Virus record (IMG/VR): IMGVR_UViG_3300031227_000005 | Direction: 5' to 3' (one strand) | Source of the DNA: a virus | Length of the DNA stretch: 39,713 bases | Shown here: positions 11,001 to 39,713 of the stretch, piece by piece | How positions within the stretch are numbered: the first letter of the stretch is position 1 | How the letters are laid out: each line of letters starts with the position of its first letter | Program-made: the position numbers and the translations under genes | The notes under the pieces: generated by a model | Databases searched by the model: none | What the model saw: only the letters and a program-made list of their open reading frames with translations | Told to the model about the DNA's origin: nothing

Positions 11001-13180
11001 ATGTCGATTTCAACGTGTCGGCGTGCACATTCCTGGAGGTGGTCCGCCTTTCTTGGACAGCCGCACCGCAACGCGACGTCACCGCATACGAGGTCCGCGA
11101 CGAGGACGCGAATTTCGGCACGGACGACGAGCACCGAATGCACTACAACACCGGCCAGGTTCTTCAGGCTGTGTTCCCGTGGACAACCAGCGTCAACCCG
11201 ACGTGGTATATTCGCGCCCGCAACTCCGCGGGGAACTTCTCGTCCGGTTCCGACAGCGTGCAAACGATAAACGCCGTGCCAACCTTACCGGATTCGCCAA
11301 TCCTCACGGCTCCGGGTATCGCGATCATCCAGGCGAATTGGGATCCGCTGGAGGGTGATCCCACCGATATCGACGTGAAGGAATGGAAAGTCTACATCGA
11401 CGCCGTGGACGGCTCGACGCTCGTGGCAACGTTGCCGGTCGGAACGCTGGTGTATCCATACATCGGAGAAACATCCACAACATACTACGTTCGGATATCA
11501 GCCGTGGATATCGTGGATCAGGAGGGCGCGAAATCCAGCGTCGTGTCGAAGCTGACCGGCAATGTCACAGGCAACGACATAGAAGACCACTCCGTCGAAC
11601 CGGTCAAGCTGGTACTACCTGCTCCTGAAGTCACAGACGGTATATGGTATAGTGACACAGGCACAGGCGAAGTGACGTGGGAAGATGTGGAGATCGAATT
11701 CGACGGCGTGTCGTACACGATCCTCGACGGCGCGGTGTTGTCACTGACTAATCACGGCTTTGAAACCGGCGACTTGACCGGATGGGGTCCGACATTCACC
11801 GGTTACCCGGCTACATACGAAGCATCACAAGCACAGGCATACTCGGGACTGTGGAGTTATCACCACGTTGATACTCTCGACGGTCCAGGCATACAGCAGA
11901 CGGTAGTCCTAGAGGACGGCGATACTTACACGCTGTCGTGTTGGGTATACCCTGTTTCTGGAGTGGCGGATTTGTTCCTGCACGGTGGTGGCGGATTCTC
12001 TGCGATGAAAGTCTCATCTGTCGGCACTGGAGCGTGGGAACGGTTGACACTCACGATGGCACTTGACGGAGGCACAGGCTTACCGATAGATGGATACATC
12101 CAGCTTCGTGGCATCACAGAAGCGTATTTCGACGGCGTGACATTGCACCACGACGTGGCATCCGGCGGTACTCAAGACGCTACAGCGAACAGATATATCA
12201 CATGGACCGCTGGCGATACGGTGCTGATCGACTATGCCACCGCGCCTGACCTGCTTGACCGCGAATACTTCATCGGTGTCAACGACGGCGGACAATTAAC
12301 GGCGTTCGCTTCGCCGTCTCGCTTGCCCACTGGCACCGTGGCAACGCTGCATATCGACGCGTTGGCTATCACAGACGCGAAGGTGGCGACCGGACAGGAC
12401 GCGTCGAAAATCAACATCGGAACGCTGTCAGAGATAACAGTTGAGACGAGTGCTACGGGTTCGGGCTTACAGCGTGTGGTGATAGATCAGTCAACAGCAA
12501 ACATGACTTTCTATGACTCAACAGGGACCGCCGTCGTGGTTATCGATGATGATGTTCTTCCAACCCCAGTTATCTCAAGCAACGCAGGGGGAGTAGCAAC
12601 CGAAGACGGCATTATCGTTGCAGGAACTAGCGATAATACTGGATATGTAGCTCTTACGCCTCGCATGATCGAAGGGTATACTGGTCAAAACCCAACTGGA
12701 TTCTATAGTCTCTGTGACTTGGTATGGGATATCGTTGGTGTAGCAGGCACAGATAAGATATTCAGGATAAGGCGATACTCAACAACTATTACAACACAAA
12801 TGAGTATCAGCGCGCAGGGCGACATTGATACGAACGGTGACCTAAACGTAGAAGGTGACACCACACTCGACGACCTGACTGTCGGCGGCGACCTGACCAT
12901 CACGGGTTCCCACCTGATGCAGAGTAAGGCTGTGGTGGCTACCTACACGGCGTTGACTACAGATAACGTCATACTGTGCACAGGGACGTTCACGGTCACG
13001 CTGTACGCTGTCAGTGGCAACTCAGGCCGCAACATGCGGATCAAAAACGTCGGGACCGGTGTGGTAACGGTCACGGGAGACTCAGCACCCGAGACAATCG
13101 ACGACGAGGTCACACAGGAGCTTTACGAAAACGACAGTATGGCAATTGTCACAAACGGAACAACTTGGAGCATCATCTAA
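8024..13180 (+). CDS. Host specificity / central tail fibre protein, gpJ-like with a gpI-like N-terminal module
   Basis: 1718 aa. The N-terminus has IAFAPMPGGDAKE, a hydrophobic stretch and NIPMYVIYGKVRIKP, resembling gpI. It is followed by a J-like body, FN3-like segments, two CBM5/12-like repeats, a CBM4_9-like module and a distinct C-terminal domain. Confidence 0.85.
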   Translation: MAYVTLVRMSSPFTRSAKELDRTVEAIREGSTLAEYLPEGDHIAAKVPGISVEVSSFIPTAGDMIAFAPMPGGDAKEYLRPIGQIGIALGSVALTLSGHPYAAVALAFGGDQLIDVFLPAPQMTRPDSESVYGWTSGGNPQAANNIPMYVIYGKVRIKPVQLERIVLTTGNTQRIDVVYGVAGHRIDTVHEVELNGTDADTIANVEVTTREGIVAQTTIPGFDSTYVDHPNGLVLLCNLTTGSPLFCTEYTVNILDSDITGLKVDFVCPDGLYAIAGSGLMQPNAVAFNMKYKETSSGTWVNFPNPDGAAGYFRIEETTTRTVRRSYVVYDLPVGTYDVKIQKASLESSSPDTSDKLTLENISSITTDGLRYPGQALIAVQGVATESLSGVLTTSAVVERTTVDVYDAVGTAWTTENANNPAWACYDLLVNGCTDHPALDTVGNPTTADGSRYGCAIDPDNIDYAAFLAWATECDTQSFTVNLAVDQFTTAAETLATIAQLGAGVVVTVGSMFTCSYDSATEPTYMFTPGNMLIDSYSATWSGPTVNMIETTFLDATRDYAQTTLAVRSDDFDTGDGLHPVHLRLDGCTDEAMAWKIAGRYMRSKELQKQTIQFSAPLDAMPVVIGDVVYVQHDWPSWTTSTAAGPNIGGRILSINGLEITLDKEFTVDSGETFTLVYRAAADDTVVFRTLEPVFTETTSDTVILAAGGTGTDPSVLDYYAIGNTGSTVKKFRITDVQPSEDQLYTLSAIEYDAAVYDPAVTPTLSLSGIPILNTASNVRALEKTSKRNTGEYYSTVDIDWTASSDAVWSQWRVFSRDVTSQEPRWIGDYAAGTTYAIGDAVLYGADAFISKLDGNIGNTPVTGANWDQYRDGLTWAGVWSVGTTYAIGDSVVYVDVSEGVYAAVTAKASSTGEQPYTDFGELNGSYWELLTGAPWVFEVDARTRNVVVNIDYIDGHIYQFAVCAVSPTGEQESPDTAPFATVRIIGRLVPSDVDFNVSACTFLEVVRLSWTAAPQRDVTAYEVRDEDANFGTDDEHRMHYNTGQVLQAVFPWTTSVNPTWYIRARNSAGNFSSGSDSVQTINAVPTLPDSPILTAPGIAIIQANWDPLEGDPTDIDVKEWKVYIDAVDGSTLVATLPVGTLVYPYIGETSTTYYVRISAVDIVDQEGAKSSVVSKLTGNVTGNDIEDHSVEPVKLVLPAPEVTDGIWYSDTGTGEVTWEDVEIEFDGVSYTILDGAVLSLTNHGFETGDLTGWGPTFTGYPATYEASQAQAYSGLWSYHHVDTLDGPGIQQTVVLEDGDTYTLSCWVYPVSGVADLFLHGGGGFSAMKVSSVGTGAWERLTLTMALDGGTGLPIDGYIQLRGITEAYFDGVTLHHDVASGGTQDATANRYITWTAGDTVLIDYATAPDLLDREYFIGVNDGGQLTAFASPSRLPTGTVATLHIDALAITDAKVATGQDASKINIGTLSEITVETSATGSGLQRVVIDQSTANMTFYDSTGTAVVVIDDDVLPTPVISSNAGGVATEDGIIVAGTSDNTGYVALTPRMIEGYTGQNPTGFYSLCDLVWDIVGVAGTDKIFRIRRYSTTITTQMSISAQGDIDTNGDLNVEGDTTLDDLTVGGDLTITGSHLMQSKAVVATYTALTTDNVILCTGTFTVTLYAVSGNSGRNMRIKNVGTGVVTVTGDSAPETIDDEVTQELYENDSMAIVTNGTTWSII

Positions 13181-14619: not shown

Positions 14620-14628
14620 CCTAAAATA

Positions 14629-14659
14629 AGAGGGGCCACTATTTCAAGTTGGCCCCTCT
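14629..14659. terminator. Bidirectional intrinsic terminator between convergent operons
   Basis: Perfect 10-bp stem: AGAGGGGCCA (14629..14638) pairs with TGGCCCCTCT (14650..14659), with an 11-nt loop. A T-rich run follows on the minus strand (CTTATTTTAG) and a C/T-rich run follows on the plus strand. Confidence 0.75.
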
Positions 14660-14703
14660 CTGCTTCTCTCGTTCGCGTTTTGATCCACGACCGGTAACCA
14701 TTA

Positions 14704-15909
14704 TTACGTCAACCCAAGATCGTACTGCTGTTCGGGTGCCTCATCTATCCGCTTGCGTGCCATCTCGCAATATTCTGGGTTCAACTCTATGCCTATGTAT
14801 CGCCTTCCGTGTGCCTTTGCTACCACCCCTACGGTACCAGACCCGTTGAACGGATCGAGGACGGTGCACGGTTGCGCGAACGGGTTGCCGCATTCACACG
14901 TAGGTTCCCACCCGGTTGTGGTTGACGTAACACACGGGCCGCGTCGCACGTCAAGCGTTCCGCCACCACCCTGCAAGTCTTCGCCGTTCTTGCCACTCGG
15001 TAGATTGCCAGCCTTGCCACTGCCAGACTCGAACGTCCGTGTTTTCTCGGTTACACGCGAGAACGGTGCGCCACACTTCACGCAACACCCTTTCTCTGAC
15101 GATCCAGCAAGCAGGCACGGCTCCACCAGCTTCGTCGGGAACGTGGCGAAGTGTGCCTCTGCGTATGGTTGTGTGGCGATGTTCCAGACGGTGCGCTTGT
15201 TGCGACCATTTGCGTTTACGGATCGCTTGCCGTCCCATGCGTCTTTATTGTGTGCTCCTTTGTGGTACTCGTCTGGTGTGGCATTTTTTGAACGATCAGC
15301 ACCCCACAGCCCACCTTTCCCATCCGATGCCATCTGTTCCCGTATCGCATCTGCGTCGTAGAAATACCTGTCACGTTTCGTCAGTAGGAACATGTATTCG
15401 TGCGACTTCGTTGGTCGGTCGATCACACTCTCAGGCATGGGGTTAGGCTTCGCCCAGATCACGTCGGAACGCAACCACCACCCGTCGGCCTGCAACGCGA
15501 ACGCCACACGCCACGGGATACCCACGAGGTCTTTGTGCTTGATCGTATTCCCTGTGTGCTTCTGTGTGCCAGTTGCCTTGTAAGACATTCCACCTGCACG
15601 ACCATCCGCTCTATGATCCCCGTCGTTTCTACCTGCTGCGGGGTTCCCGTAACTATCACCCAGGTTCAACCAACACACGCCGTCGTCACGCAACACCCGG
15701 CGAACCTCGCGGAACACGCCAACCATGCGGGTGACATATTCGTCAGGCGTTGACTCCAACCCGATCTGACCGTCTTCACCGTAGTCACGCAACCCCCAAT
15801 ACGGCGGGCTGGTGATGACACAGTGCACCGACTCGTCAGGTATCTGTGAGAGTCCGTCGAGAACGTCCGCGTTGATGATTGTGGTCATGCTGTCCACTTG
15901 AACCTCCAT
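14704..15909 (-). CDS. DNA methyltransferase, N4-cytosine/N6-adenine family (beta-class motif order)
   Basis: Motif IV (ITSPPYWGLRDYG) lies near the N-terminus and motif I (VLDPFNGSGTVGVVA) near the C-terminus. A Cys-rich segment (CCVKCGAPF ... CECG) lies between them. An alternative start is the ATG at 15888. Confidence 0.85.
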   Translation of the reverse strand: MEVQVDSMTTIINADVLDGLSQIPDESVHCVITSPPYWGLRDYGEDGQIGLESTPDEYVTRMVGVFREVRRVLRDDGVCWLNLGDSYGNPAAGRNDGDHRADGRAGGMSYKATGTQKHTGNTIKHKDLVGIPWRVAFALQADGWWLRSDVIWAKPNPMPESVIDRPTKSHEYMFLLTKRDRYFYDADAIREQMASDGKGGLWGADRSKNATPDEYHKGAHNKDAWDGKRSVNANGRNKRTVWNIATQPYAEAHFATFPTKLVEPCLLAGSSEKGCCVKCGAPFSRVTEKTRTFESGSGKAGNLPSGKNGEDLQGGGGTLDVRRGPCVTSTTTGWEPTCECGNPFAQPCTVLDPFNGSGTVGVVAKAHGRRYIGIELNPEYCEMARKRIDEAPEQQYDLGLT

Positions 15910-16759: not shown

Positions 16760-16785
16760 AAAAAGCCCGCCAGCGTCCGGCGGGC
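16760..16785 (-). terminator. Intrinsic terminator after the Erf gene
   Basis: On the minus strand: GCCCGCC, a 7-nt loop, GGCGGGC, then TTTTT. Confidence 0.65.
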
Positions 16786-16793
16786 GTCGTGTG

Positions 16794-17534
16794 TTACTCG
16801 TGGATCGGGATATCCTTGATCTGCAGAACGATGTTCATGATCTTCCCGGTGTCTAGCGAACCAAGGGCACACTTGAACTTTTCGTGGACCATGGCTTCAA
16901 CGTCAACAGACGAGATTTTGCGGGCCTTCGCCTCGGTTTCGAGCGTGTCTAGTGCGGCGTTTCGCTTGGAGTCGTCGCCGGGTTTCTGTGCTGGTTCGCG
17001 ATTCTGAGGCTGTCCGCCGTCAGGGTTCGTGCTTCCTGGACGGTTGCGGTTCGGCGGTGGTTCGTTGTCGTGGTTCGTTCGCTCCACGTCCTCGCCGCCG
17101 CCGTTGATGTTGAACGTCTGGCAGACGCTCACCTTGAACGCCGACGTGTGGCCCTTGTTGCTCTGCTTGTCGCCAGTGTCGGCACCTTGCCCCATGCATA
17201 TCGTATAGACGTACGAACCGTCGGTGGTGGAAATGTAACGGTGCTCGACGACTATCTCGGTAATCACCATCGATCCAGAAGGGCTTGGATAGTGTGTAGT
17301 GAATTCAGGGTGCAGTATCGGCTGGATGAAGATTCCAGCAGTCTTGAGCGGTTCGTGGATCGCCTCCTGGATGTCGTCGATGGAGCGGTACTTGAAACGA
17401 GGACCGGATTCGGTCTCCGTTTTCTTACCGAGTGCCTTGATGAGATTGAACGCGACGCCCATTTTCTGGTGTATGTCGCCTTCGGTGCCGTGTCGTGGAG
17501 TCGTTGTGAGATCCGGTGGGTTAGCGTTGTCCAT
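16794..17534 (-). CDS. erf: ERF-family single-strand annealing recombinase
   Basis: Starts at the internal ATG (MDNANPP) with GAGG 5 nt upstream. FKYRSIDDIQEAIHEPLKTAGI and GDKQSNKGHTSAFKVSVCQTFNI parallel P22 Erf YKYRSCEDILEGVKPLL and ...TSSYARKYCLNGLFGI. Confidence 0.8.
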   Translation of the reverse strand: MDNANPPDLTTTPRHGTEGDIHQKMGVAFNLIKALGKKTETESGPRFKYRSIDDIQEAIHEPLKTAGIFIQPILHPEFTTHYPSPSGSMVITEIVVEHRYISTTDGSYVYTICMGQGADTGDKQSNKGHTSAFKVSVCQTFNINGGGEDVERTNHDNEPPPNRNRPGSTNPDGGQPQNREPAQKPGDDSKRNAALDTLETEAKARKISSVDVEAMVHEKFKCALGSLDTGKIMNIVLQIKDIPIHE

Positions 17535-17610
17535 GTTCGCCTCGGTGGTTGATGGTGTGTGGCCTGTCCTGACGCCCGCACCTGGCCAAGGGTGCGGAAG
17601 CTGGGACAGG

Positions 17611-18093
17611 TTACCAGCAATGCGTCTCTCCGTTGTGGTCCGCTTCATAGCGTGCACTGGCCAGATTGCCCATGTATCCTTTGATATTACGCGGTGTTGT
17701 GGAGACGCCATATGTGAAGTGCGGGTAGTATGGGAACATGCGACGCAATGAGCGTGGAAGACCGTCCGAAATCCATGCGGGGGAAGTATCGCCGAGGGTG
17801 TGGGTGTTCGTTGCTTCAATAGCTTCCGGGGTAGGACGTGCGAAGCGTCGGATGTTGAATCGGGGGAAGATACCCTGACGTGCGAATAGGACCAGTTCAC
17901 GTTCCGTAATGGGGTACGAATCATCACACATGCCACTGAGAGGGTATGGTAATTCTCTACGCCGTGATATGGTGCGTGCAAGTTCGTGTTCAATCTTCAT
18001 ACCGCATAGTTCGCTGTATGCGTTGCTTGCGCCGATGCCGTCTATACGGATGTATGCCGTGTAGATTTTGCGGATCGTCGTCATGCTCGTCAT
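17611..18093 (-). CDS. Hypothetical protein
   Basis: 160-aa ORF with GAGGA 8 nt upstream. It is the first gene after promoter P1. Confidence 0.5.
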   Translation of the reverse strand: MTSMTTIRKIYTAYIRIDGIGASNAYSELCGMKIEHELARTISRRRELPYPLSGMCDDSYPITERELVLFARQGIFPRFNIRRFARPTPEAIEATNTHTLGDTSPAWISDGLPRSLRRMFPYYPHFTYGVSTTPRNIKGYMGNLASARYEADHNGETHCW

Positions 18094-18139
18094 CTTCTCG
18101 TCCTCGGTTGGTGTCGTTGCTCCGTCGTTCGTTACCTAG

Positions 18140-18168
18140 AATATAGAGGCGGGTATACATCACGTCAA
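18140..18168 (-). promoter_or_regulatory. Sigma70-like promoter P1 (leftward)
   Basis: On the minus strand: TTGACG, a 17-nt spacer (TGATGTATACCCGCCTC), then TATATT. Confidence 0.55.
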
Positions 18169-18212
18169 CACCAATACGCAAGAAACAGAGAAAGTATTCC
18201 ATAAATACGAAA

Positions 18213-18240
18213 GCGTGCGCCAGACTCAACCGGCGCACGC
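18213..18240 (-). terminator. Intrinsic terminator after the 196-aa gene
   Basis: 9-bp stem, GCGTGCGCC pairing with GGCGCACGC, and a 10-nt loop. On the minus strand it is followed by TTTCGTATTTATGG. Confidence 0.55.
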
Positions 18241-18259
18241 GTGATGTGGTCTCGTTGTG

Positions 18260-18850
18260 TCAGGATTCCAGAATCGTGACCGGCAGCGGTCCGTCGGGAC
18301 CGAAGCCTGGCTTGTATTCGGCGGCGTTCGTGCCTCTGATCGTGTACGTGCGCGTGTGTGTGATCAGTTCCTCCAGCTCCGGCGCAAGGGCGCGGTCCTT
18401 GTCGAGCATTCCCTTGACGTACTTCTGAAGTGCCGACCGGTTGACGGTTGTCGCGATCTCGCCGTCGATGCCCATGTCGCGTAGTTGTTCAATGACGCGG
18501 AGTGGGTCGATCAGAGATTCGTCGTATCCGTCCTTCAAACCAGCCTTACGCACCCATTCGAGCAGTCTGTCGGCGTTCTCGGGATCGAAAGCGACGGATG
18601 TCTCGCACCGCACTTTCATGTTCATCTCGACCCGCTCGTCGGAATCACATCCGGTTTCGAGATAGTATTCGACGACTTCGTGCTCTATCCCTCGTCGTCG
18701 CTTCTTGAGGGTGTCGATCTCCGTGAGCCTGACAGCGACAGCGCGGTCGATCGCTGCTATCTCGTCGGACTTATTTTCCTTGTCCGCTATGTATTCCTCG
18801 GTGTAAGGCAGAGTGTAGTCGATGCTGGGGGCCTTATCTGCTTCTGACAT
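18260..18850 (-). CDS. Gp157/Gam-like recombination accessory protein (tentative)
   Basis: 196 aa with an N-terminal coiled coil. Its architecture and C-terminal ...TRTYTIRG resemble the Sipho_Gp157 family. It lies upstream of erf. Confidence 0.35.
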   Translation of the reverse strand: MSEADKAPSIDYTLPYTEEYIADKENKSDEIAAIDRAVAVRLTEIDTLKKRRRGIEHEVVEYYLETGCDSDERVEMNMKVRCETSVAFDPENADRLLEWVRKAGLKDGYDESLIDPLRVIEQLRDMGIDGEIATTVNRSALQKYVKGMLDKDRALAPELEELITHTRTYTIRGTNAAEYKPGFGPDGPLPVTILES

Positions 18851-18907
18851 GCGTTCCTCCGTTCGGATGATGGTCAGTGGCGACGAATTGCCGCCACGCT
18901 CTCGGTC

Positions 18908-19717
18908 TCACTGTACGATGAAGTGCGGGACTGATTCAACGGTCCATGCCTTGCACATCGATGGATGCGCACCTGACGGGAAAGTCACCCCGGTACCGAG
19001 CATACACGATTGCAGTAATTCGACCGTGACGGTACAGTCGAGTGCATTCCCATAGCACTGATCAGGGTCCGCGATCACAACGCCGTGATTCCACAGTCGC
19101 CCGTGTTCCTGGATGACTCTGAGCGCATCGTGTGCGAATTCCCACGGTGTGCGCCCGGTGACGCCACCCTCGCGATCTCCGCCAATGGACAGGGTCATCT
19201 CGTCGCCGTACGTGGTGTGTATGTCGAGCGATTCATGCTCGGGATACACCGTGGAGAAATCGCCGTCGTTGTCCTGTTCCCCGTCCGCCTCCTTGTTTGC
19301 GATCGTAATATCGGCGTCAAGGACGTGAATCCACGGTGTCGCCTTGTATACCTTGATTGCTTGAATTGCGATGGAAAGGTCGCCGGTAAAGCTCCCACGG
19401 ATGATAGTTCCAGCGTCGTTGGTTACGAGATCTTCGCCAAGGTCGGTAAACCCATCTGGCACGATCCATCGCTCTGTGGTATACGCCACACCGTTTATCT
19501 CTGTCCTGCCGACCATCCGAGGAAATATCCGCATGGTAACGCGGACAGATCCGGGAATTGTCGCGACGTAAACAGGACGCCCGTCGGCCTGTCGTGTGGT
19601 GGTGATGTCAACGGTTCCGATTGTCGCGTCAGGTGGGTTCTCACGTTGACCCTCAGCGAATGGCGCGATCGCGTCCAGGTATCCGCCGATCAGCGTAGTT
19701 TCTTCGTATCGTGGCAT
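18908..19717 (-). CDS. Acidic hypothetical protein, first leftward early gene
   Basis: 269-aa ORF. My count is 39 D+E against 18 K+R. Confidence 0.55.
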   Translation of the reverse strand: MPRYEETTLIGGYLDAIAPFAEGQRENPPDATIGTVDITTTRQADGRPVYVATIPGSVRVTMRIFPRMVGRTEINGVAYTTERWIVPDGFTDLGEDLVTNDAGTIIRGSFTGDLSIAIQAIKVYKATPWIHVLDADITIANKEADGEQDNDGDFSTVYPEHESLDIHTTYGDEMTLSIGGDREGGVTGRTPWEFAHDALRVIQEHGRLWNHGVVIADPDQCYGNALDCTVTVELLQSCMLGTGVTFPSGAHPSMCKAWTVESVPHFIVQ

Positions 19718-19768
19718 GCCGTCTCCGTTCGTGTGGGTTCGTCGGTCTCTCGTCGGTCAGTGGTGTAT

Positions 19769-19797
19769 ATAGTACGTGCCGGTGTATACCATGTCAA
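19769..19797 (-). promoter_or_regulatory. Sigma70-like promoter P2 (leftward early)
   Basis: On the minus strand: TTGACA, a 17-nt spacer (TGGTATACACCGGCACG), then TACTAT. Confidence 0.6.
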
Positions 19798-19853
19798 CAC
19801 TACGCCGTGAAATGATTCCGATAATATTCCATAGTGATACACACGGGGCGGTA

Positions 19854-19882
19854 TTGACATGATGTATACCAGTCCATACATT
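19854..19882 (+). promoter_or_regulatory. Sigma70-like promoter P3 (rightward early)
   Basis: TTGACA, a 17-nt spacer (TGATGTATACCAGTCCA), then TACATT. Confidence 0.5.
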
Positions 19883-19931
19883 CTATACAGCAGATAAAGA
19901 AATACCAACACGAACGAGAAAGGAACACAAG

Positions 19932-20642
19932 ATGAACTGGCATAGTCGATACGACCCTGAAACACGAGGGACGATCTACACGCTCACGTTGACACTACCA
20001 GGGACTGAGCCGATGAAAGAAGGCGAACGGGACGGCGCGTGCGGTGGGGAGTATGATTGCGAGCTAGAGCCGGATACCGGTTCCTCCGTTGTGTTGATTG
20101 TCGAAAAGCTGTGCGTGGCCGAACGCCGGGCATTGTTTACCGTGAGGCTACAGAACGAAAAGGATTCGCAATTCGACGGGATGGATATATGGGCATTCCG
20201 TATGTTCCTCGCTGGATGGTATCTCGCGGTTGCGATGAAATCCGAGGTTCCGTCTACTAAAGAACTGGACGTGTGGTTTAATGAATCCCGCGTGCTGGTT
20301 TTCGACGAATTCGGCAATATGGCAGACAAGACTCCATATCGTGGCGATTATCTGATCGTGTCCTCGTCCGGCGGCGCACTCGCGGAAGGATACCCGGAGA
20401 TCAGATGGGAGATCAGCGAAGCCCTCTGCGTTGACGACGATGAAGCAAAGCACCTGATGGACAATCCAGGGTACGGAGTGCCCACATCTGACTCTACGCG
20501 AATGAAGAACGGCGCGTGGATCAACTACTGGAGGATCCGCGCGACCGAGGCGCAGCTTGTGAACATGCAGGAACGAGACCCGAAGTGGACGCGGTGGCTC
20601 GTTGTCGATGCTGACTGGAAAGGATCAGACCATGAATGGTGA
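19932..20642 (+). CDS. Hypothetical protein, first rightward early gene
   Basis: 236-aa ORF with AAAGGA upstream. Confidence 0.55.
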   Translation: MNWHSRYDPETRGTIYTLTLTLPGTEPMKEGERDGACGGEYDCELEPDTGSSVVLIVEKLCVAERRALFTVRLQNEKDSQFDGMDIWAFRMFLAGWYLAVAMKSEVPSTKELDVWFNESRVLVFDEFGNMADKTPYRGDYLIVSSSGGALAEGYPEIRWEISEALCVDDDEAKHLMDNPGYGVPTSDSTRMKNGAWINYWRIRATEAQLVNMQERDPKWTRWLVVDADWKGSDHEW

Positions 20643-21348
20643 CAGAACGGTACACAAATCCACGTCAGCAACGGCGAGGCAGTGGATGAAGCGCGGCGAC
20701 CACGACCACCCGAAATCGCTTGATGAACTGGTTGGCATCCACTGCACCGATCACGACGATATGATAGAACTCGCTGAGAAACGAGGCGTCGATCCTTCGC
20801 TGTGCGCTTACGTGTTCCTGACATGGAGAGACGCCGGATTCGGGTGGTATCTCATCGCTCCCGGTGACTGGCTCATTTGTCGCGGCGTGGGATGGGGTGG
20901 AACGCCCTACATCCGGCAGGTTCTCACGGACGCCGAGTTCCGCAAGGAGTGGAGCGAGACGCCGCTGGTGGACGGTGCCCTGTTCGCGAAGATGGCGGCG
21001 TTCTGTGCATGGGCCAGCGACCACGGAGTGATCGAAACGGCGATGGATGACCACATTGGTAGTTACCTGGAAACAAACACAGATGAGGAATACCAGGATA
21101 TCCTGAACGGTATTGAAAAAGAAATAAGCAATATGCCAACATTGCCAGAACTCGTCGAAGAGAAGTGTCCGAGGTGCAAAACAAGCACGCGCCGTCTGTT
21201 TCTGAAACCTGCTGATATTGACAAGCTCTCGTGGATGGATTGCGAGTTGCCGCCGTCGCCGGATTCGCGTCCGGTGTGCGAGGATTGCCGTAGTCGGATC
21301 ATTGATGAGGTCCGCAAGACGTTGAAATATGGGGGTAAGTCGAGATGA
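20632..21348 (+). CDS. Hypothetical protein with a C-terminal CxxC...CxxC zinc-ribbon-like motif
   Basis: The ATG at 20632 overlaps the end of the upstream gene. CPRCK and CEDC pairs lie near the C-terminus. Confidence 0.5.
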   Translation: MNGDRTVHKSTSATARQWMKRGDHDHPKSLDELVGIHCTDHDDMIELAEKRGVDPSLCAYVFLTWRDAGFGWYLIAPGDWLICRGVGWGGTPYIRQVLTDAEFRKEWSETPLVDGALFAKMAAFCAWASDHGVIETAMDDHIGSYLETNTDEEYQDILNGIEKEISNMPTLPELVEEKCPRCKTSTRRLFLKPADIDKLSWMDCELPPSPDSRPVCEDCRSRIIDEVRKTLKYGGKSR

Positions 21349-21683
21349 GCGGTGAATACGAAGGACTCGTGAAGGTGATTCAGGACTACGCGGACACCAT
21401 CGGGCACGATGCGTACGCGGTACTAGCCAAGGACTTCATGCGGATACACACAGAGCACACGGGCCGCGAGACTAAGACTACGCTCGTCGAGATACTAAAA
21501 CTCCGCACGCGCGCCGTAGAGAAATACGGAGCGTTCGCCAGCCCACACGAGGCGTACGGTGTGCTTGCCGAGGAAGTCGCGGAACTCCTGGACGAGATCC
21601 GCAAGAACGACAGAGCAGGGACGCGCCGCGAGGCGTTGGATGTCGCCGCCGTTGCGTTAAGGTTGGCCGAGGAATTGGAATAG
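21345..21683 (+). CDS. MazG-like nucleotide pyrophosphohydrolase
   Basis: 112 aa with an ATGA overlap. HEAYGVLAEEVAELLDEIRKND ... EALDVAAVALR matches the EExxE/D helical signature of the small MazG family. Confidence 0.6.
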   Translation: MSGEYEGLVKVIQDYADTIGHDAYAVLAKDFMRIHTEHTGRETKTTLVEILKLRTRAVEKYGAFASPHEAYGVLAEEVAELLDEIRKNDRAGTRREALDVAAVALRLAEELE

Positions 21684-21707
21684 TCCAGCGATCACGCCTC
21701 GCCACGC

Positions 21708-21736
21708 TTGACCTATGTATACACGAGATGTATACT
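21708..21736 (+). promoter_or_regulatory. Sigma70-like promoter P4
   Basis: TTGACC, a 17-nt spacer (TATGTATACACGAGATG), then TATACT. ATGTATAC occurs twice. Confidence 0.6.
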
Positions 21737-21768
21737 AATATCACGCACAACAACAAGGAGGCGACGAT

Positions 21769-21948
21769 ATGGCACTCAGGTCGAAACAGGTAAAGATGGA
21801 CGAGCATACGCGTTCCGTCTTGCAGGTTCTCGCGAAACGTATGCCGATCCCGAACGAGTCGGAGTTAATCAGGGACATGATCCACGCTCAGGCGAAGCGG
21901 GAGGGCGTAACGCGCATCGAAACAGAACTGCACGCTTCCGGGCGGTGA
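21769..21948 (+). CDS. Ribbon-helix-helix (CopG/Arc-like) DNA-binding protein, 59 aa
   Basis: Not in the ORF track. AAGGAGG lies 7 nt upstream of the ATG. The product MALRSKQVKMDEHTRSVLQVLAKRMPIPNESELIRDMIHAQAKREG fits a strand-helix-helix pattern. Confidence 0.65.
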   Translation: MALRSKQVKMDEHTRSVLQVLAKRMPIPNESELIRDMIHAQAKREGVTRIETELHASGR

Positions 21949-22011
21949 AACGAAGAAGCCCGCCGAGGTGCCGAGAAACACCAGGCGGGCCAGAACTGGA
22001 GTGCATGTTCC

Positions 22012-23082
22012 GTGAATGATACACCCATACCAGAAATAAGTCAACCACGCGCGTTCGTATACAGCAAGGCACCCGATATGATATTCGGTACTCCAGAATA
22101 CGATAACCTCTCGGAGACTGGCGGGTTCGTGTATCTATACTTGATTTACAGACTTGACAAAAACAGCCTCGCGGATCCTCCGATTATGGAGATAGCACGG
22201 GACACAAAGAAGTCGGTCCGCGAAGTGAAGCGTGGCATCCAGGAGCTAACCGCGTCCGGGTTGATTGACGTGCAAAAGAACGGTCGGAGGAATGTCTACA
22301 CCGTTATGTTCCCAGATGAGACCACGAAGCAAATAGGTGCCACACTGGCCTCTATTGCAAACACAACAGAGGCCACACCGGCACCTATTACACAAACAGG
22401 TGCCACACAGTCCTCAGTTGATATTACAACAGAGGCCACACCGGCACCTATCGCGGAAATAGGTGCCACACAGTCACCTATTAATCCCGAACAGGTGCCA
22501 CACCGGCACCTATCAGGACAGCAGGAGCTAGGACTAGGATTAGAACTAGAGCAAGGAGAGGAAGAGGACCGTAGCTCAGAGCACGGCCCATACGACGACG
22601 ACATGTCAAGTAATCGATACCGGACGTTTGGAGAGGACACGCCCGAGGAGTCACTGTCGAAACTGGTGTTGACCGAAGGCATGCAGAAGTTTTGCCGCAA
22701 GCACTTCGGCGAGTCTTCCGCCGCCGTCGAAAACTACTGGATTCAGTGCATGTTGTACGAGGCGAACGTTGACTCACGGTACAGGCCGTACAAAGAGACC
22801 GGCGTGATGATCTCGCGAATTATGCGTGCCTGGTTCAGGAAGGGCCACACGCCAGAGCGGTGCGTCGAGGTTATCCAGATCCACGTCGAGCGCATGAATG
22901 ATCCGGCGAAACGTCTCACGAAAAACCTCTCGTTCGTGGATGATTTTTTCAAGGGCGAGAAGCGACGCGCGAAGAACTCGAAAGGCATAGCGACCGAACC
23001 ACAACAGCAGGGCGAATACGCAACCGAAGCAGAGAAGTACGGCGGATCAGGCGGAACTGTTTCAACAGGCGGGTTCAGATGA
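22012..23082 (+). CDS. Replication initiator / replisome organiser (lambda O-like role) with an N-terminal winged helix
   Basis: A wHTH-like segment (IMEIARDTKKSVREVKRGIQELTASGLIDVQKNGRRNVYTV), internal iteron-like repeats and an acidic linker. It lies directly upstream of the DnaC-like loader. Confidence 0.65.
   Translation: MNDTPIPEISQPRAFVYSKAPDMIFGTPEYDNLSETGGFVYLYLIYRLDKNSLADPPIMEIARDTKKSVREVKRGIQELTASGLIDVQKNGRRNVYTVMFPDETTKQIGATLASIANTTEATPAPITQTGATQSSVDITTEATPAPIAEIGATQSPINPEQVPHRHLSGQQELGLGLELEQGEEEDRSSEHGPYDDDMSSNRYRTFGEDTPEESLSKLVLTEGMQKFCRKHFGESSAAVENYWIQCMLYEANVDSRYRPYKETGVMISRIMRAWFRKGHTPERCVEVIQIHVERMNDPAKRLTKNLSFVDDFFKGEKRRAKNSKGIATEPQQQGEYATEAEKYGGSGGTVSTGGFR
22335..22512. 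repeat. Iteron-like repeat array inside the initiator gene (candidate origin)
   Basis: The GCCACAC core occurs at 22339, 22372, 22402, 22435, 22465 and 22497, with spacings of 33, 30, 33, 30 and 32 nt. AGGTGCCACAC occurs 4 times. GGCCACACCGGCACCTAT occurs twice, plus one variant. The repeat unit is 63 bp. Confidence 0.7.
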
Positions 23083-23894
23083 TGACAAAGAGACGCGGAA
23101 AGACTACCAACACCGAGGAGTTATTCGGGAATACTGAGAGTATCCTGGATGCGATCAAGAACCACGTCGGCGGACCGCTGGATATCATCGATCGCGAGGA
23201 GAACCCGGAGGAGTATGAGAGACACCGGAACGCTCCGTCGGAATCGGATCAGACGTGGGTGAAGAGTTACCCGGAACGGGCGATGGTGGCCAGGTTGAAA
23301 AACGGGCGCGTGCCGGACGACTATCTGCACTCCAGACTTTCTAAGATGGTGTATCCTCCGGGGCCGAAATATATGATCCTCCGCCAGTGCCACGAAACAC
23401 TCATGAGATACGCGAAAAATCGCGAGTGGGAAAAACGCTGGTTGATCCTGCTCGGCGGAACAGGTACCGGTAAAACGAAAAGTGCCGTCGGGATCCTTCG
23501 TGCGTTTCTGCACTATGCGAACCCGAAGAATCGCGCACTGTTCGTGCCGGTGCGGACCTACCTCGACAACTGCAACAAGTGGAGCAACCACGCCACAACA
23601 GCACCGCGGGGATTCGACGAGATATCGAACGCGTCCGCCGTCCTCCTGGATGATCTCGGCGCGGAATCTGTAGACGAGAAGAACCGGTCACACATCGCTG
23701 AGGTTGTCAACGTGTGCTCTGCGTATCGTCGTCCGCTGATCATCACCAGTAACGCAAGTATCGGGCATTTTCTCGGCGATGAATCGGAGGGATGGCTGGA
23801 CGCCCGCACACGGTCCAGGTTACGCGAGGCGTCGTTGATCCTGACGCTCGACGGACCAGACTACCGAACACAAGAAACGGAGGAATCAACGTGA
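23079..23894 (+). CDS. DnaC/IstB-like AAA+ helicase loader
   Basis: Walker A (GGTGTGKTKS), Walker B (AVLLDDLGAE) and sensor-1-like LIITSN. Confidence 0.8.
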   Translation: MMTKRRGKTTNTEELFGNTESILDAIKNHVGGPLDIIDREENPEEYERHRNAPSESDQTWVKSYPERAMVARLKNGRVPDDYLHSRLSKMVYPPGPKYMILRQCHETLMRYAKNREWEKRWLILLGGTGTGKTKSAVGILRAFLHYANPKNRALFVPVRTYLDNCNKWSNHATTAPRGFDEISNASAVLLDDLGAESVDEKNRSHIAEVVNVCSAYRRPLIITSNASIGHFLGDESEGWLDARTRSRLREASLILTLDGPDYRTQETEEST

Positions 23895-24124
23895 TCAGAT
23901 TCGAGAGAATCGCACGCATGGAGGCGAACAACGCGCGGATGTATCTGTATATCGAAAAACACATGAATCAACACGGGTATTTTCCATCTGTCGAGAAGAT
24001 GGTCGCCGGTCTGGACCTGAGCGCGAGATCTGTTCGCCGAACTCTGAAGGCGATGCACGACGCCGGGTTGATAGTGCGAGATCTTCGCGGGAACTTTACC
24101 AGCCTTCATGAGTTGAAAGTCTGA
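23891..24124 (+). CDS. LexA-N-terminal-like winged-helix DNA-binding protein (77 aa)
   Basis: The GTG at 23891 has GGAGGA 6 nt upstream and overlaps the upstream stop. YIEKHMNQHGYFPSVEKMVAGLDLSARSVRRTLKAMHDAGLI resembles the LexA DNA-binding domain. Confidence 0.55.
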   Translation: MIRFERIARMEANNARMYLYIEKHMNQHGYFPSVEKMVAGLDLSARSVRRTLKAMHDAGLIVRDLRGNFTSLHELKV

Positions 24125-25519: not shown

Positions 25520-26800
25520 ATGAGGAACCGGACGCGGTCAATCGAATTCAGAGGCCAGAACACGAAAGAGACGCGGAAACGGATATTGCGTCACTTCCGG
25601 GCCGCATTCGGTCGCCGCCTTGGGCGTGAAATCTTCGACAGGAACACGAACCGGTCTTACTGGGTCAACGGGGTCGCTGTGTGTCGTTTCGCGGTCACTG
25701 TGAGCGAACGCGCGACGTGGAAACTCTACTGGAGAAACAAGAAGATGATTGATGGATGGGACATTTGGCATGCACACGGCGACAAAAACATGACGGCGTT
25801 GTCGCGCGAAGGCGAACACACCATCGACGACGGCCTCGCGATTGCACGTCACCACAAGGGATCTGATCCTAGAGATGATTCAGACGGCGAGACGCCGTTC
25901 ACCGAATGGCAGACGGAACGTGTCAAGTTGTTGAAGTTCGAGCCGACGCCGGAGGAATACAAGATCGCCGCCGTAGGCGCCGGGCCGGTGTTCGTGCAAC
26001 ATGACAGCGGCGCCGTCTATACCGTCGTGTACGATCCGAGATACCCGTTTCGTGGGTACGTGTCTGGCGCTGTCATTGCGTGCCTAACGTGGAACGGCGT
26101 GAACAAGACGGCGGAACGTGGCGGCGGCCTTCTGTCGGCACGCGCGGCGTTGACCAAACTCCACAACGAGGCAACCGAAGGCTGGACGCTGTTCGCGTGG
26201 GAACAGGCGGAAATCTACGCGCTAGTGAAGCCGGGCACGTTCGACCGAGAGGACGGTATCGCGGCACTGGAGGAACGGCACGGGTACGACGTGATCGGTA
26301 GCGATCAGACATACGATGTGTGGAAACATGAGGTGATGAATCTCGTCACGTTCTCAATTCCGCCAGCGGACAAGAACGGCGAACCGGTTCTCCGGTATGC
26401 AGCCGACGACGAACACGGGACGCCGCACACGCTCCTATTCCATACCGACGGAGTGAACCCGATCATCAAGGACGTGAGGTCGGCGGTCGGTATGTGGTGT
26501 CGTACGCAAGACTACATGTTGCCGCCTGAACTCGGGCGCATCATGCCGTACGTTCTGAAGATCCGCGAGGCGAAAGGGATACCGAGCCTTACCCGTCGCG
26601 AAGAGATCGCCACGGGAGAGCTTTCGACGCTTACCGGAATTGGTGACTCAGAGGCGAAACGGATAATCCATTCATGCGAAGTTATGAGCCTTGACGGCGG
26701 CCAGGTGTATGTTGTCCCGATCACGAAGGAACAAGCGGACCGCGCAAGAACATACGCGTGGGCAAGCGTTCGCCAGGTGTTCGCGGAGCCGCAACAGTGA
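25520..26800 (+). CDS. Hypothetical protein with a C-terminal helix-hairpin-helix motif
   Basis: The ATG at 25520 has GAGG 5 nt upstream (the track ORF starts at GTG 25514). LSTLTGIGDSEAKRII fits the HhH pattern LxxLxGIGxxxAxxI. Confidence 0.55.
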   Translation: MRNRTRSIEFRGQNTKETRKRILRHFRAAFGRRLGREIFDRNTNRSYWVNGVAVCRFAVTVSERATWKLYWRNKKMIDGWDIWHAHGDKNMTALSREGEHTIDDGLAIARHHKGSDPRDDSDGETPFTEWQTERVKLLKFEPTPEEYKIAAVGAGPVFVQHDSGAVYTVVYDPRYPFRGYVSGAVIACLTWNGVNKTAERGGGLLSARAALTKLHNEATEGWTLFAWEQAEIYALVKPGTFDREDGIAALEERHGYDVIGSDQTYDVWKHEVMNLVTFSIPPADKNGEPVLRYAADDEHGTPHTLLFHTDGVNPIIKDVRSAVGMWCRTQDYMLPPELGRIMPYVLKIREAKGIPSLTRREEIATGELSTLTGIGDSEAKRIIHSCEVMSLDGGQVYVVPITKEQADRARTYAWASVRQVFAEPQQ

Positions 26801-39196: not shown

Positions 39197-39713
39197 CGTA
39201 CGTGCAATACCTGGACGCGATCCAGTCTGGCCTACCCGTAGCACTGACGAACGGCACAACGGCGAACATCTCCGTCAAGCTACCGCAAACAACGCGGTAT
39301 ATCACATTCCTCCCGAGTATTGCCGTCGATCTCGGGAAGTTCTATTCGACGAAACAGGCAAACGACTCGTTCGAGTTGCGCGCCTTCGTCGAGTCTGGCG
39401 ATCTGGTCGCGTCCACGGGAACCATCCCGATGCACGACGACAGCCCTGCATTCGCGCGGTCAGTGGCATTGATCAACCACGCGGTGACCGACGCGTCAAC
39501 CGCCGCAACGTTGACCGGTAGAGCGTTCGAGGTTCGCTTGCAGTGCGACATCGACGCTTACATTGGGTTCGACGTGGCAGCCGCCGCCACCAACTCTTAC
39601 AAGATTCTCGCCGACACGCCGCAAGACTTCCACGTCGCCGGGATATCGTCGATTGTTGCACTCCGCGTTGGGGCCGCCGATGGCGTGCTCCAGATACTGG
39701 AGATGCTTCCAGA
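39193..39713 (+). CDS. Hypothetical protein of the head/neck module. The ORF runs off the right edge and closes at 138..140 once the repeat is collapsed (about 177 aa).
   Basis: ATG at 39193 overlaps the upstream stop (ATGA). The frame stays open to 39713 and, through the repeat, reaches TGA at 138..140. That stop overlaps the GTG of the next gene (GTGA). Confidence 0.6.
   Translation, partial: MTYVQYLDAIQSGLPVALTNGTTANISVKLPQTTRYITFLPSIAVDLGKFYSTKQANDSFELRAFVESGDLVASTGTIPMHDDSPAFARSVALINHAVTDASTAATLTGRAFEVRLQCDIDAYIGFDVAAAATNSYKILADTPQDFHVAGISSIVALRVGAADGVLQILEMLP
39587..39713. repeat. Right copy of 127-bp direct terminal repeat
   Basis: Identical to 1..127. An overlap of 127 is typical of de Bruijn assembler circular overlaps. 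Confidence 0.97.

Follow-up and report, generated by a model that had tools for sequence, protein, structure and literature searches.

Small repressors such as the ribbon-helix-helix (RHH) proteins Arc and Mnt of phage P22, and Cro of phage lambda, dampen strong early promoters via operators that overlap the promoter core; these operators are 17-21 bp long, consist of two half-sites and belong to temperate phages with immunity regions. A single RHH dimer can read a hexamer palindrome, as in the structure of the antitoxin CcdA2 solved on GTATAC, whose operator sites lie approximately 12 bp apart (PMC5389731). YefM uses paired TGTACA hexamers with a centre-to-centre spacing of 12 bp that lie over the -10 element (PMC1802561). 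Aca14, likewise an RHH protein, acts through inverted repeats over the -10 element to repress both the phage operon that encodes it and a neighbouring one (PMC13551039), and in archaeal viruses a regulatory sequence shared around strong early promoters marks early genes (PMC11065993). Here we analyse a viral genome, IMG/VR record IMGVR_UViG_3300031227_000005, whose 39,713 nucleotides we refer to as the window, and in which four predicted promoters between positions 18,140 and 21,736 (P1 to P4) carry the hexamer GTATAC (the box) between their -35 and -10 elements.

An initial annotation of the window had described these promoters as sharing one architecture, with an exact 17-nt spacer and GTATAC starting 3-5 nt past the -35 hexamer. 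All four promoter sequences were found exactly as it gave them (Table 1): the spacer is 17 nt in 4/4 promoters, GTATAC starts at spacer position 5 in P1, 3 in P2, 5 in P3 and 4 in P4, and a second copy of ATGTATAC spans the -10 element of P4, as had been described. Each promoter scores 10 of 12 against the sigma-70 consensus (-35 near TTGACA, -10 TAnnnT, spacer of 17 +/- 1 nt), lies in non-coding DNA and has a short leader of approximately 26-45 nt to a start codon. The stretches before these start codons are purine-rich, as in a ribosome-binding site (RBS), and read GAGGA, GGAG or AAGGAGG, with a weaker AAAGGAA at P3. The first ATG after P1 is at 18093, with GAGGA 8 nt upstream, and the start codon after P2 is at 19717. 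P2 and P3 stand back to back with their -35 boxes 56 bp apart. Judged by sequence, P1 to P4 carry all the features of promoters.

The four-promoter GTATAC feature is real and statistically solid. A genome-wide search for TTGACN-N2-5-GTATAC, the kind of check that the initial annotation had called for, returned 4 matches where 0.10 were expected, and 0 of 100 shuffled genomes reached 4. Sigma-70-like sites scoring at least 10/12 number 5 in the whole genome against a shuffle mean of 2.4, P1 to P4 being four of them, and in 200 shuffles no sigma-70-like site had GTATAC in its spacer. From the frequency of GTATAC in this genome, the chance of finding it is about 0.005 per spacer and about 5e-10 for all four. 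An equal frequency of the composite inside genes, which the annotation had named as counting against its proposal, was not seen: P1 to P4 are all intergenic, and a looser gap rule adds one composite, TTGACC-A-GTATAC at 12677-12688(-), which lies antisense in the gene for a 1718-amino-acid (aa) tail protein, is the only one within a gene and lacks a -10 box at 17 nt downstream. Exactly 4 copies of the 8-mer ATGTATAC are present in 39.7 kb (P1, P3 and twice in P4), all of them in the sense of transcription. For the hexamer itself, 6 of the 16 copies lie in non-coding DNA, which makes up 5.4% of the genome (P ~1e-4), and the ten copies outside the regulatory region show no pattern. We rejected the genome-wide excess of GTATAC as evidence; the 16 copies compare with 5.25 expected from dinucleotide shuffling, and the excess is gone under higher-order Markov models (11-17 expected). 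The excess depends on the background model; the signal lies in the placement of the sites and not in their number.

The way in which the box is conserved bears on what reads it. Its register shifts by up to 2 nt against the promoter hexamers at constant 17-nt spacing, which favours a separate DNA-binding protein, since an element read by polymerase should hold one register. P1 and P3 are identical at 29 of 36 positions (81%); they match over GGTnTTGACnTGATGTATACC and over TAnATTCTA, the intervening 6 nt agree at 2 of 6 positions, and 11 nt including the box are identical. Because P1 and P3 agree in the box and diverge beside it, the conservation resembles selection on the box. Outside the box, the spacers of P2 and P4 are unrelated to those of P1 and P3. 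The box is self-complementary, a palindrome of 6-8 bp; 4 of its 5 copies have the form ATGTATAC, and the P2 copy, TGGTATACA, reads TGTATACC on the opposite strand, a form that is present in P1 and P3. At P4 the two boxes have their centres 13 bp apart, the second lying over the -10 element, and both are inside an inverted repeat with 18-nt arms (21706-21746). Boxes with one mismatch near P2 and P3 are possibly weak second sites. No variation was seen in this region among all contig copies and four metagenome runs.

Table 1. Predicted promoters, boxes, genes and transcription units of the early/replication region, in window coordinates
Feature	Position	Strand	Description
P1	18168..18140	-	TTGACG-17-TATATT; -35 18168-18163, GTATAC 18153-18158, -10 18145-18140; box ATGTATAC
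P2	19797..19769	-	TTGACA-17-TACTAT; -35 19797-19792, GTATAC 19784-19789, -10 19774-19769; box TGGTATACA
P3	19854..19882	+	TTGACA-17-TACATT; -35 19854-19859, GTATAC 19864-19869, -10 19877-19882; box ATGTATAC
P4	21708..21736	+	TTGACC-17-TATACT; -35 21708-21713, GTATAC 21717-21722 and 21730-21735, -10 21731-21736; two ATGTATAC
One-mismatch box GTATAT	19765..19770		19 bp start-site-ward of the main P2 box; overlaps the end of the P2 -10
One-mismatch box CTATAC	19883..19888		19 bp downstream of the main P3 box, right after the P3 -10; offset as in P2
59-aa orphan gene	21769..21948	+	First gene behind P4; AAGGAGG 7 nt before the ATG
P1 unit	leftward	-	160-aa orphan open reading frame, ERF recombinase, then second terminator 16785..16765
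P2 unit	leftward	-	269-aa orphan open reading frame, DUF7307 protein, then terminator 18240..18213
Intrinsic terminator	18240..18213	-	11-bp stem with 9 G-C pairs and T tail; ends the P2 unit just upstream of P1
P3 unit	rightward	+	236-aa and 220-aa ORFans, MazG-like protein
P4 unit	rightward	+	59-aa gene, replication initiator, DnaC-like loader, then the remaining rightward genes

The initial annotation had offered two readings of the conservation beyond the hexamers, a shared operator or a phage-specific promoter class. The conservation itself stands, and of the two readings the operator is favoured; a promoter class is less favoured given the register shift, the dimer-sized palindrome and the duplication at P4, which precedes the sole small gene nearby that looks DNA-binding. 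We propose that the GTATAC box serves as the operator of a single small DNA-binding protein, a dimer, that would repress the early units in a coordinated manner, a reading to which, on the sequence evidence, we give an even chance. In this proposal we infer that the promoters are active and that a protein binds the box, as well as which protein this is and in which direction it regulates. With near-consensus hexamers and an optimal 17-nt spacer the promoters should fire without help, so that P1 to P4 would be active unaided once the DNA enters the cell. The box would then stand between the -35 and -10 elements of every strong host-polymerase promoter of the phage. A protein that occupies a bacterial promoter from about -20 to -27 is expected to compete with polymerase. 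A regulator on the box would exclude RNA polymerase in this way, and at P4 the second copy would also cover the -10 element. Since the promoters are already near consensus and a protein bound there competes with polymerase, the sign of regulation is likely negative. The early units would be shut off, or held in negative feedback, together; those regulated would be the P1, P2 and P3 units and, behind P4, the regulator itself and then the replication genes.

The most likely occupant of the box is the product of the 59-aa gene, which stands directly behind the double-box promoter P4 and is for that reason a candidate autoregulator. The gene was called in 7/7 places shown, in different metagenome assemblies. 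Its product matches the Pfam family RHH_1 with E = 0.01 and 16.2 bits over model positions 5-38 of 39. An AlphaFold2 single-sequence model of the monomer (predicted local distance difference test score, pLDDT, 78) has an extended N-terminus (residues 1-11) followed by helices at 12-24 and 30-57, and in a Foldseek search with it, ranks 1-6 include five RHH proteins (PrpA, ParD, PutA), the best matches being RHH antitoxins and PutA. An RHH dimer reads approximately 6 bp of two-fold symmetric sequence, and an RHH-like candidate therefore fits GTATAC. No match to the 59-aa protein was found in NCBIfam, HMMER searches of 1.84 billion representative sequences returned the protein itself and two long proteins that match in several short stretches (E 1.6e-5 and 5.4e-4), and apart from these no homologue at E <= 1e-3 was seen there or in a set of 5.8 billion proteins. 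That the 59-aa protein is a ribbon-helix-helix regulator is plausible but weak. The next gene encodes a replication initiator with an HTH_36 / O-like domain, and a hairpin 3' of the 59-aa gene is not exceptional (z = -1.7).

Several observations weigh against an operator bound by this protein. The RHH_1 match is below the family cutoff (16.2 versus 20.5 bits), the Foldseek matches to RHH proteins are non-significant (E of at least 0.67), and a comparison with PDB sequences gave no match at E <= 10, CcdA structures included. The phage has alternative candidates for the binder, namely a winged-helix protein (23891-24124) and many ORFans. P1 to P3 have one perfect hexamer each, a weak site for a single RHH dimer, and the possible second boxes, 13 or 19 bp off, are not on the same helical face; CcdA2 barely discriminates among hexamer palindromes (PMC5389731). 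No RNA runs containing the phage were found. Searches of phage, IMG/VR, GTDB, JGI and protein collections yielded no relatives that would show whether operator and regulator co-vary. The genome-wide scan for sigma-70-like sites showed no further recognisable promoter ahead of approximately 25 kb of genes downstream of P4, and if P4 is their sole promoter, tight repression would starve late expression, so that at most dampening would be expected. Either the control would then be feedback dampening, which is easier to believe than a complete shut-off, or the phage has a late promoter that was not recognised.

Should the box be an operator, this would amount to a four-promoter regulon and a candidate regulator-operator pair in a phage nearly all of whose early proteins are orphans. 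This would be a compact, testable circuit, made up of a single 59-aa protein, a single hexamer and four promoters expected to be functional in standard reporter hosts, and it would offer a rational route to the immediate-early, possibly counter-defence, genes of an uncultivated salt-lake phage. A further-reaching version, in which an orphan RHH protein acts as the single master regulator of every host-polymerase promoter through a minimal 6-8-bp palindrome, and in which the orphans behind P1 to P3 form an immediate-early set for host takeover or anti-defence, seems to us unlikely as a whole. Were it true, the motif would tag a co-regulated set of new counter-defence genes, comparable to the cases of Aca14 and Aca8.

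Instead of a phage protein, a host regulator such as a stress or growth-phase repressor might bind the box, which would place the early promoters in a host regulon and confine the onset of early transcription to a permissive state of the host. The positional and statistical evidence would hold equally for a host operator, the phage binder candidate is weakly supported, and the hexamers of P1 to P3 could belong to a longer operator: GGTAT-N11-ATACC flanks the -35 element of P3, and P1 matches 4/5 in one arm. However, the duplicated box lies exactly at the promoter of a small phage gene that looks DNA-binding, the usual signature of a phage autoregulator, and we know of no host regulator with a GTATAC-centred site; we consider a host operator quite improbable. 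Very unlikely, in our estimation, is that the box is part of promoter function itself, recognised either by the holoenzyme of the host or by a factor of the phage that travels with it, for example as the loading site of a Q-type antiterminator, in which case transcription would pass the terminators after the early units. At the lambda promoter PR', the Q binding element is located between the -35 and -10 elements. Here the box is present in every strong promoter, terminators follow the P2 and P1 units, a -10-like TATAC follows just downstream of the -10 element in P2 and P3, the place expected for a sigma-dependent pause element, and no separate late promoter is visible. Yet a register that moves while the 17-nt spacing stays fixed is hard to square with an element docked to polymerase, no Q-like or sigma-like protein was seen among the open reading frames (ORFs) scanned, and antiterminators of the Q type usually work at a single late promoter rather than at four early promoters.

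Another way to obtain four similar promoters is copying from one ancestor, by duplication or gene conversion, with the box carried along as functionless baggage. The 81% identity of P1 and P3 over 36 nt indicates that some copying occurred, but neutral decay would have struck the box as well as the 6 nt beside it. Moreover, the spacers of P2 and P4 share only the box with P1 and P3, at other offsets, the P2 flank differs in orientation, and P4 has a second copy, so that inheritance of a passive box would have to be given a very low probability. Finally, the box could be the methylation target of the phage methyltransferase or of a host enzyme, with promoter activity following the methylation state. 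GTATAC is a typical type II site and is not depleted, unlike many hexamer palindromes that are strongly avoided here, and the phage does encode an N6/N4 methyltransferase with an SPPY motif. Nothing ties this enzyme to GTATAC, however, the hexamers outside the regulatory region have no pattern, and methylation accounts neither for the location in promoter spacers nor for the directional flank of ATGTATAC, which leaves this explanation extremely unlikely. Of these accounts, a shared operator is the best reading of the box, and a small autoregulator of the phage is its probable occupant.

A number of other assignments were tried and rejected. LexA and NrdR boxes, MerR-type activation and a reading of the box as a -10 element do not fit the sequences or the spacer length. 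Stoperators of the mycobacteriophage L5 type are numerous asymmetric repressor sites spread genome-wide and oriented with transcription, whereas ATGTATAC occurs only in the four places given above, all within promoters. No integrase or CI-type repressor was found among approximately 50 ORFs scanned in the complete circular genome, and thus the boxes are not a lysogeny switch; a CI/Cro immunity switch is also at odds with the size of the box, a 6-8-bp palindrome versus operators of 14-17 bp. For CcdA/CcdB-type membership, the spacing at P4 agrees, and both homology and a downstream toxin are missing.

P1 to P4 head the four transcription units of the early/replication region. From P4 onward the genes run without a sizeable gap into the rest of the rightward genes. 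An Rfam scan of 17500-22500 gave no real structured RNA. A 9-mer, TATGGAATA (TATTCCATA on the + strand), is present at 18195-18203 and 19825-19833, 26 and 27 nt upstream of the -35 elements of P1 and P2 and in the same orientation relative to both of these leftward promoters; a third exact copy, at 26436, is coding. This 9-mer may be an upstream site for a second factor. The fifth of the sigma-70-like sites, 22044..22016(-) (TTGACT-17-TATCAT, 10/12), lies within the first part of the replication gene and is directed back across the 59-aa gene, with GTATAC 12 nt upstream of its -35 element (22016-22062). It was rejected as a box promoter, being intragenic and having its box outside the spacer, with 2.4 such sites expected by chance; it could be an antisense promoter or a chance occurrence. 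A contig in three salt-lake runs matches only the 1.1-kb piece 20008-21124, which spans parts of two orphan early genes, and its flanks are unlike the phage on both sides. A second genome in the lakes seems to have this module as well.

The window begins and ends with the same 127 nt (1-127 = 39587-39713), a direct overlap that closes the contig into a circle of approximately 39,586 bp (about 39.6 kb, complete). The same contig and fragments of it were found in several ENA, JGI and Logan assemblies, and all runs holding the phage are labelled salt lake metagenome. Structural genes of a tailed phage are present (tape measure, minor tail proteins, the 1718-aa tail protein, terminase and a lysis region), while portal, capsid and head proteins are candidates with weak matches only. 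Other genes encode a DNA methyltransferase, an ERF recombinase, the replication initiator, a DnaC-like loader, and DUF5131 and DUF5662 proteins. Clear RBSs of the AGGAGG type precede the P4 gene and several later ones, and a purine-rich stretch stands before the start codons read; together with the G+C-rich hairpins and T tails at which the units end, these RBS-type stretches suggest that the host is a bacterium, though not one of the Bacteroidota type.

Searches for relatives by megablast and tblastn against GenBank phages found none, with no nucleotide match in 50,697 phage records, and no known phage terminase exceeds 43% identity to that of this phage. Neither IMG/VR, searched with the 269-aa, DnaC-like and terminase proteins, nor the GTDB genomes, searched with the terminase, contained relatives. 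Queries of the 5.8 billion proteins with the 59-aa, 236-aa and DnaC-like proteins returned the phage itself only, or matches of at most 35% identity; the early proteins tested are orphans in this collection. In IMG/VR, TTGACNTGATGTATACC gave 8 single-copy matches with no second copy of the motif, which we read as chance, and the motif together with a -10 element had 2 unrelated matches in JGI metagenomes. The phage is new and apparently non-temperate (virulent).

Further features of the genome were observed. The iteron array at 22330-22515, within the replication-initiator gene (22012-23082), has approximately 6 units of about 30-33 nt with near-palindromes AATAGGTGCCACACCGGCACCTATT and is probably the phage origin, in an arrangement like that of lambda O/ori. 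The rightward late genes and the leftward arm converge on a G+C-rich hairpin (AGAGGGGCCA...TGGCCCCTCT) at 14628-14660, which probably terminates transcription from both sides. The leftward arm ends with the gene (14704-15909) for the N6/N4-family methyltransferase, whose catalytic motif is SPPY instead of DPPY; SPPY more often accompanies N4-cytosine enzymes. Finally, G+C-rich hexamer palindromes are strongly avoided genome-wide, with GTCGAC and GCCGGC absent (0 against approximately 22 and 13-19 expected), CGGCCG and CACGTG present once each (10-28 and 16-21 expected) and CCGCGG twice (approximately 23 expected); TTCGAA (2 against approximately 20) and TCCGGA (3 against 12-19) are avoided as well. 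This avoidance is consistent with pressure from several host restriction systems.

Compared with the described systems, this phage differs from P22 and lambda in that neither an integrase nor a CI-type repressor is among the ORFs scanned. The likeness to the ccd operon of the F plasmid is in the operator: the identical hexamer, GTATAC, is read there by one RHH dimer of CcdA in the major groove (PDB 2H3C; PMC5389731), and at P4 the pair of hexamers, 13 bp apart where ccd has approximately 12, lies over the promoter of the putative regulator's own gene. Unlike ccd, the 59-aa protein has no detectable similarity to CcdA, the gene that follows encodes a replication initiator and not a toxin, the box is distributed over four separate promoters where ccd has one 113-bp array, and CcdA needs CcdB for its specificity. 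With YefM-YoeB the P4 promoter shares paired hexamer palindromes over the -10 element and, as proposed here, autorepression by a small dimer, although the fold and the hexamer differ and YefM acts in a toxin-antitoxin context at a single promoter.

The arrangement is also like that of the Aca-type regulators (Aca14, PMC13551039; Aca2, PMC6765145) and of the early regulatory sequence of archaeal viruses (PMC11065993), in that a small phage regulator, here a candidate, would act on inverted repeats in strong, constitutive-looking early promoters. As in Aca-type systems, the same motif is found in the promoter of the regulator's own operon (P4) and in other promoters (P1 to P3), and the regulated genes are mostly orphans. 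It differs from the Aca systems in having no recognised anti-defence gene, the neighbours being genes of no known function or genes for replication and recombination; in the position of the 59-aa gene, which is first in a replication operon and not last in an acr operon; in that no homology of the candidate to any known protein was found; and in the position of the box near the -35 side of the spacer, except for the second P4 box, whereas Aca repeats lie over the -10 element. The homology tests having failed, we do not claim membership of the 59-aa protein in the CcdA, YefM or Aca families. Both operators within promoter spacers and small autoregulators are standard textbook designs, and the general picture is unchanged by these findings; what this locus adds is a new instance of a well-known design, in a phage without known relatives.

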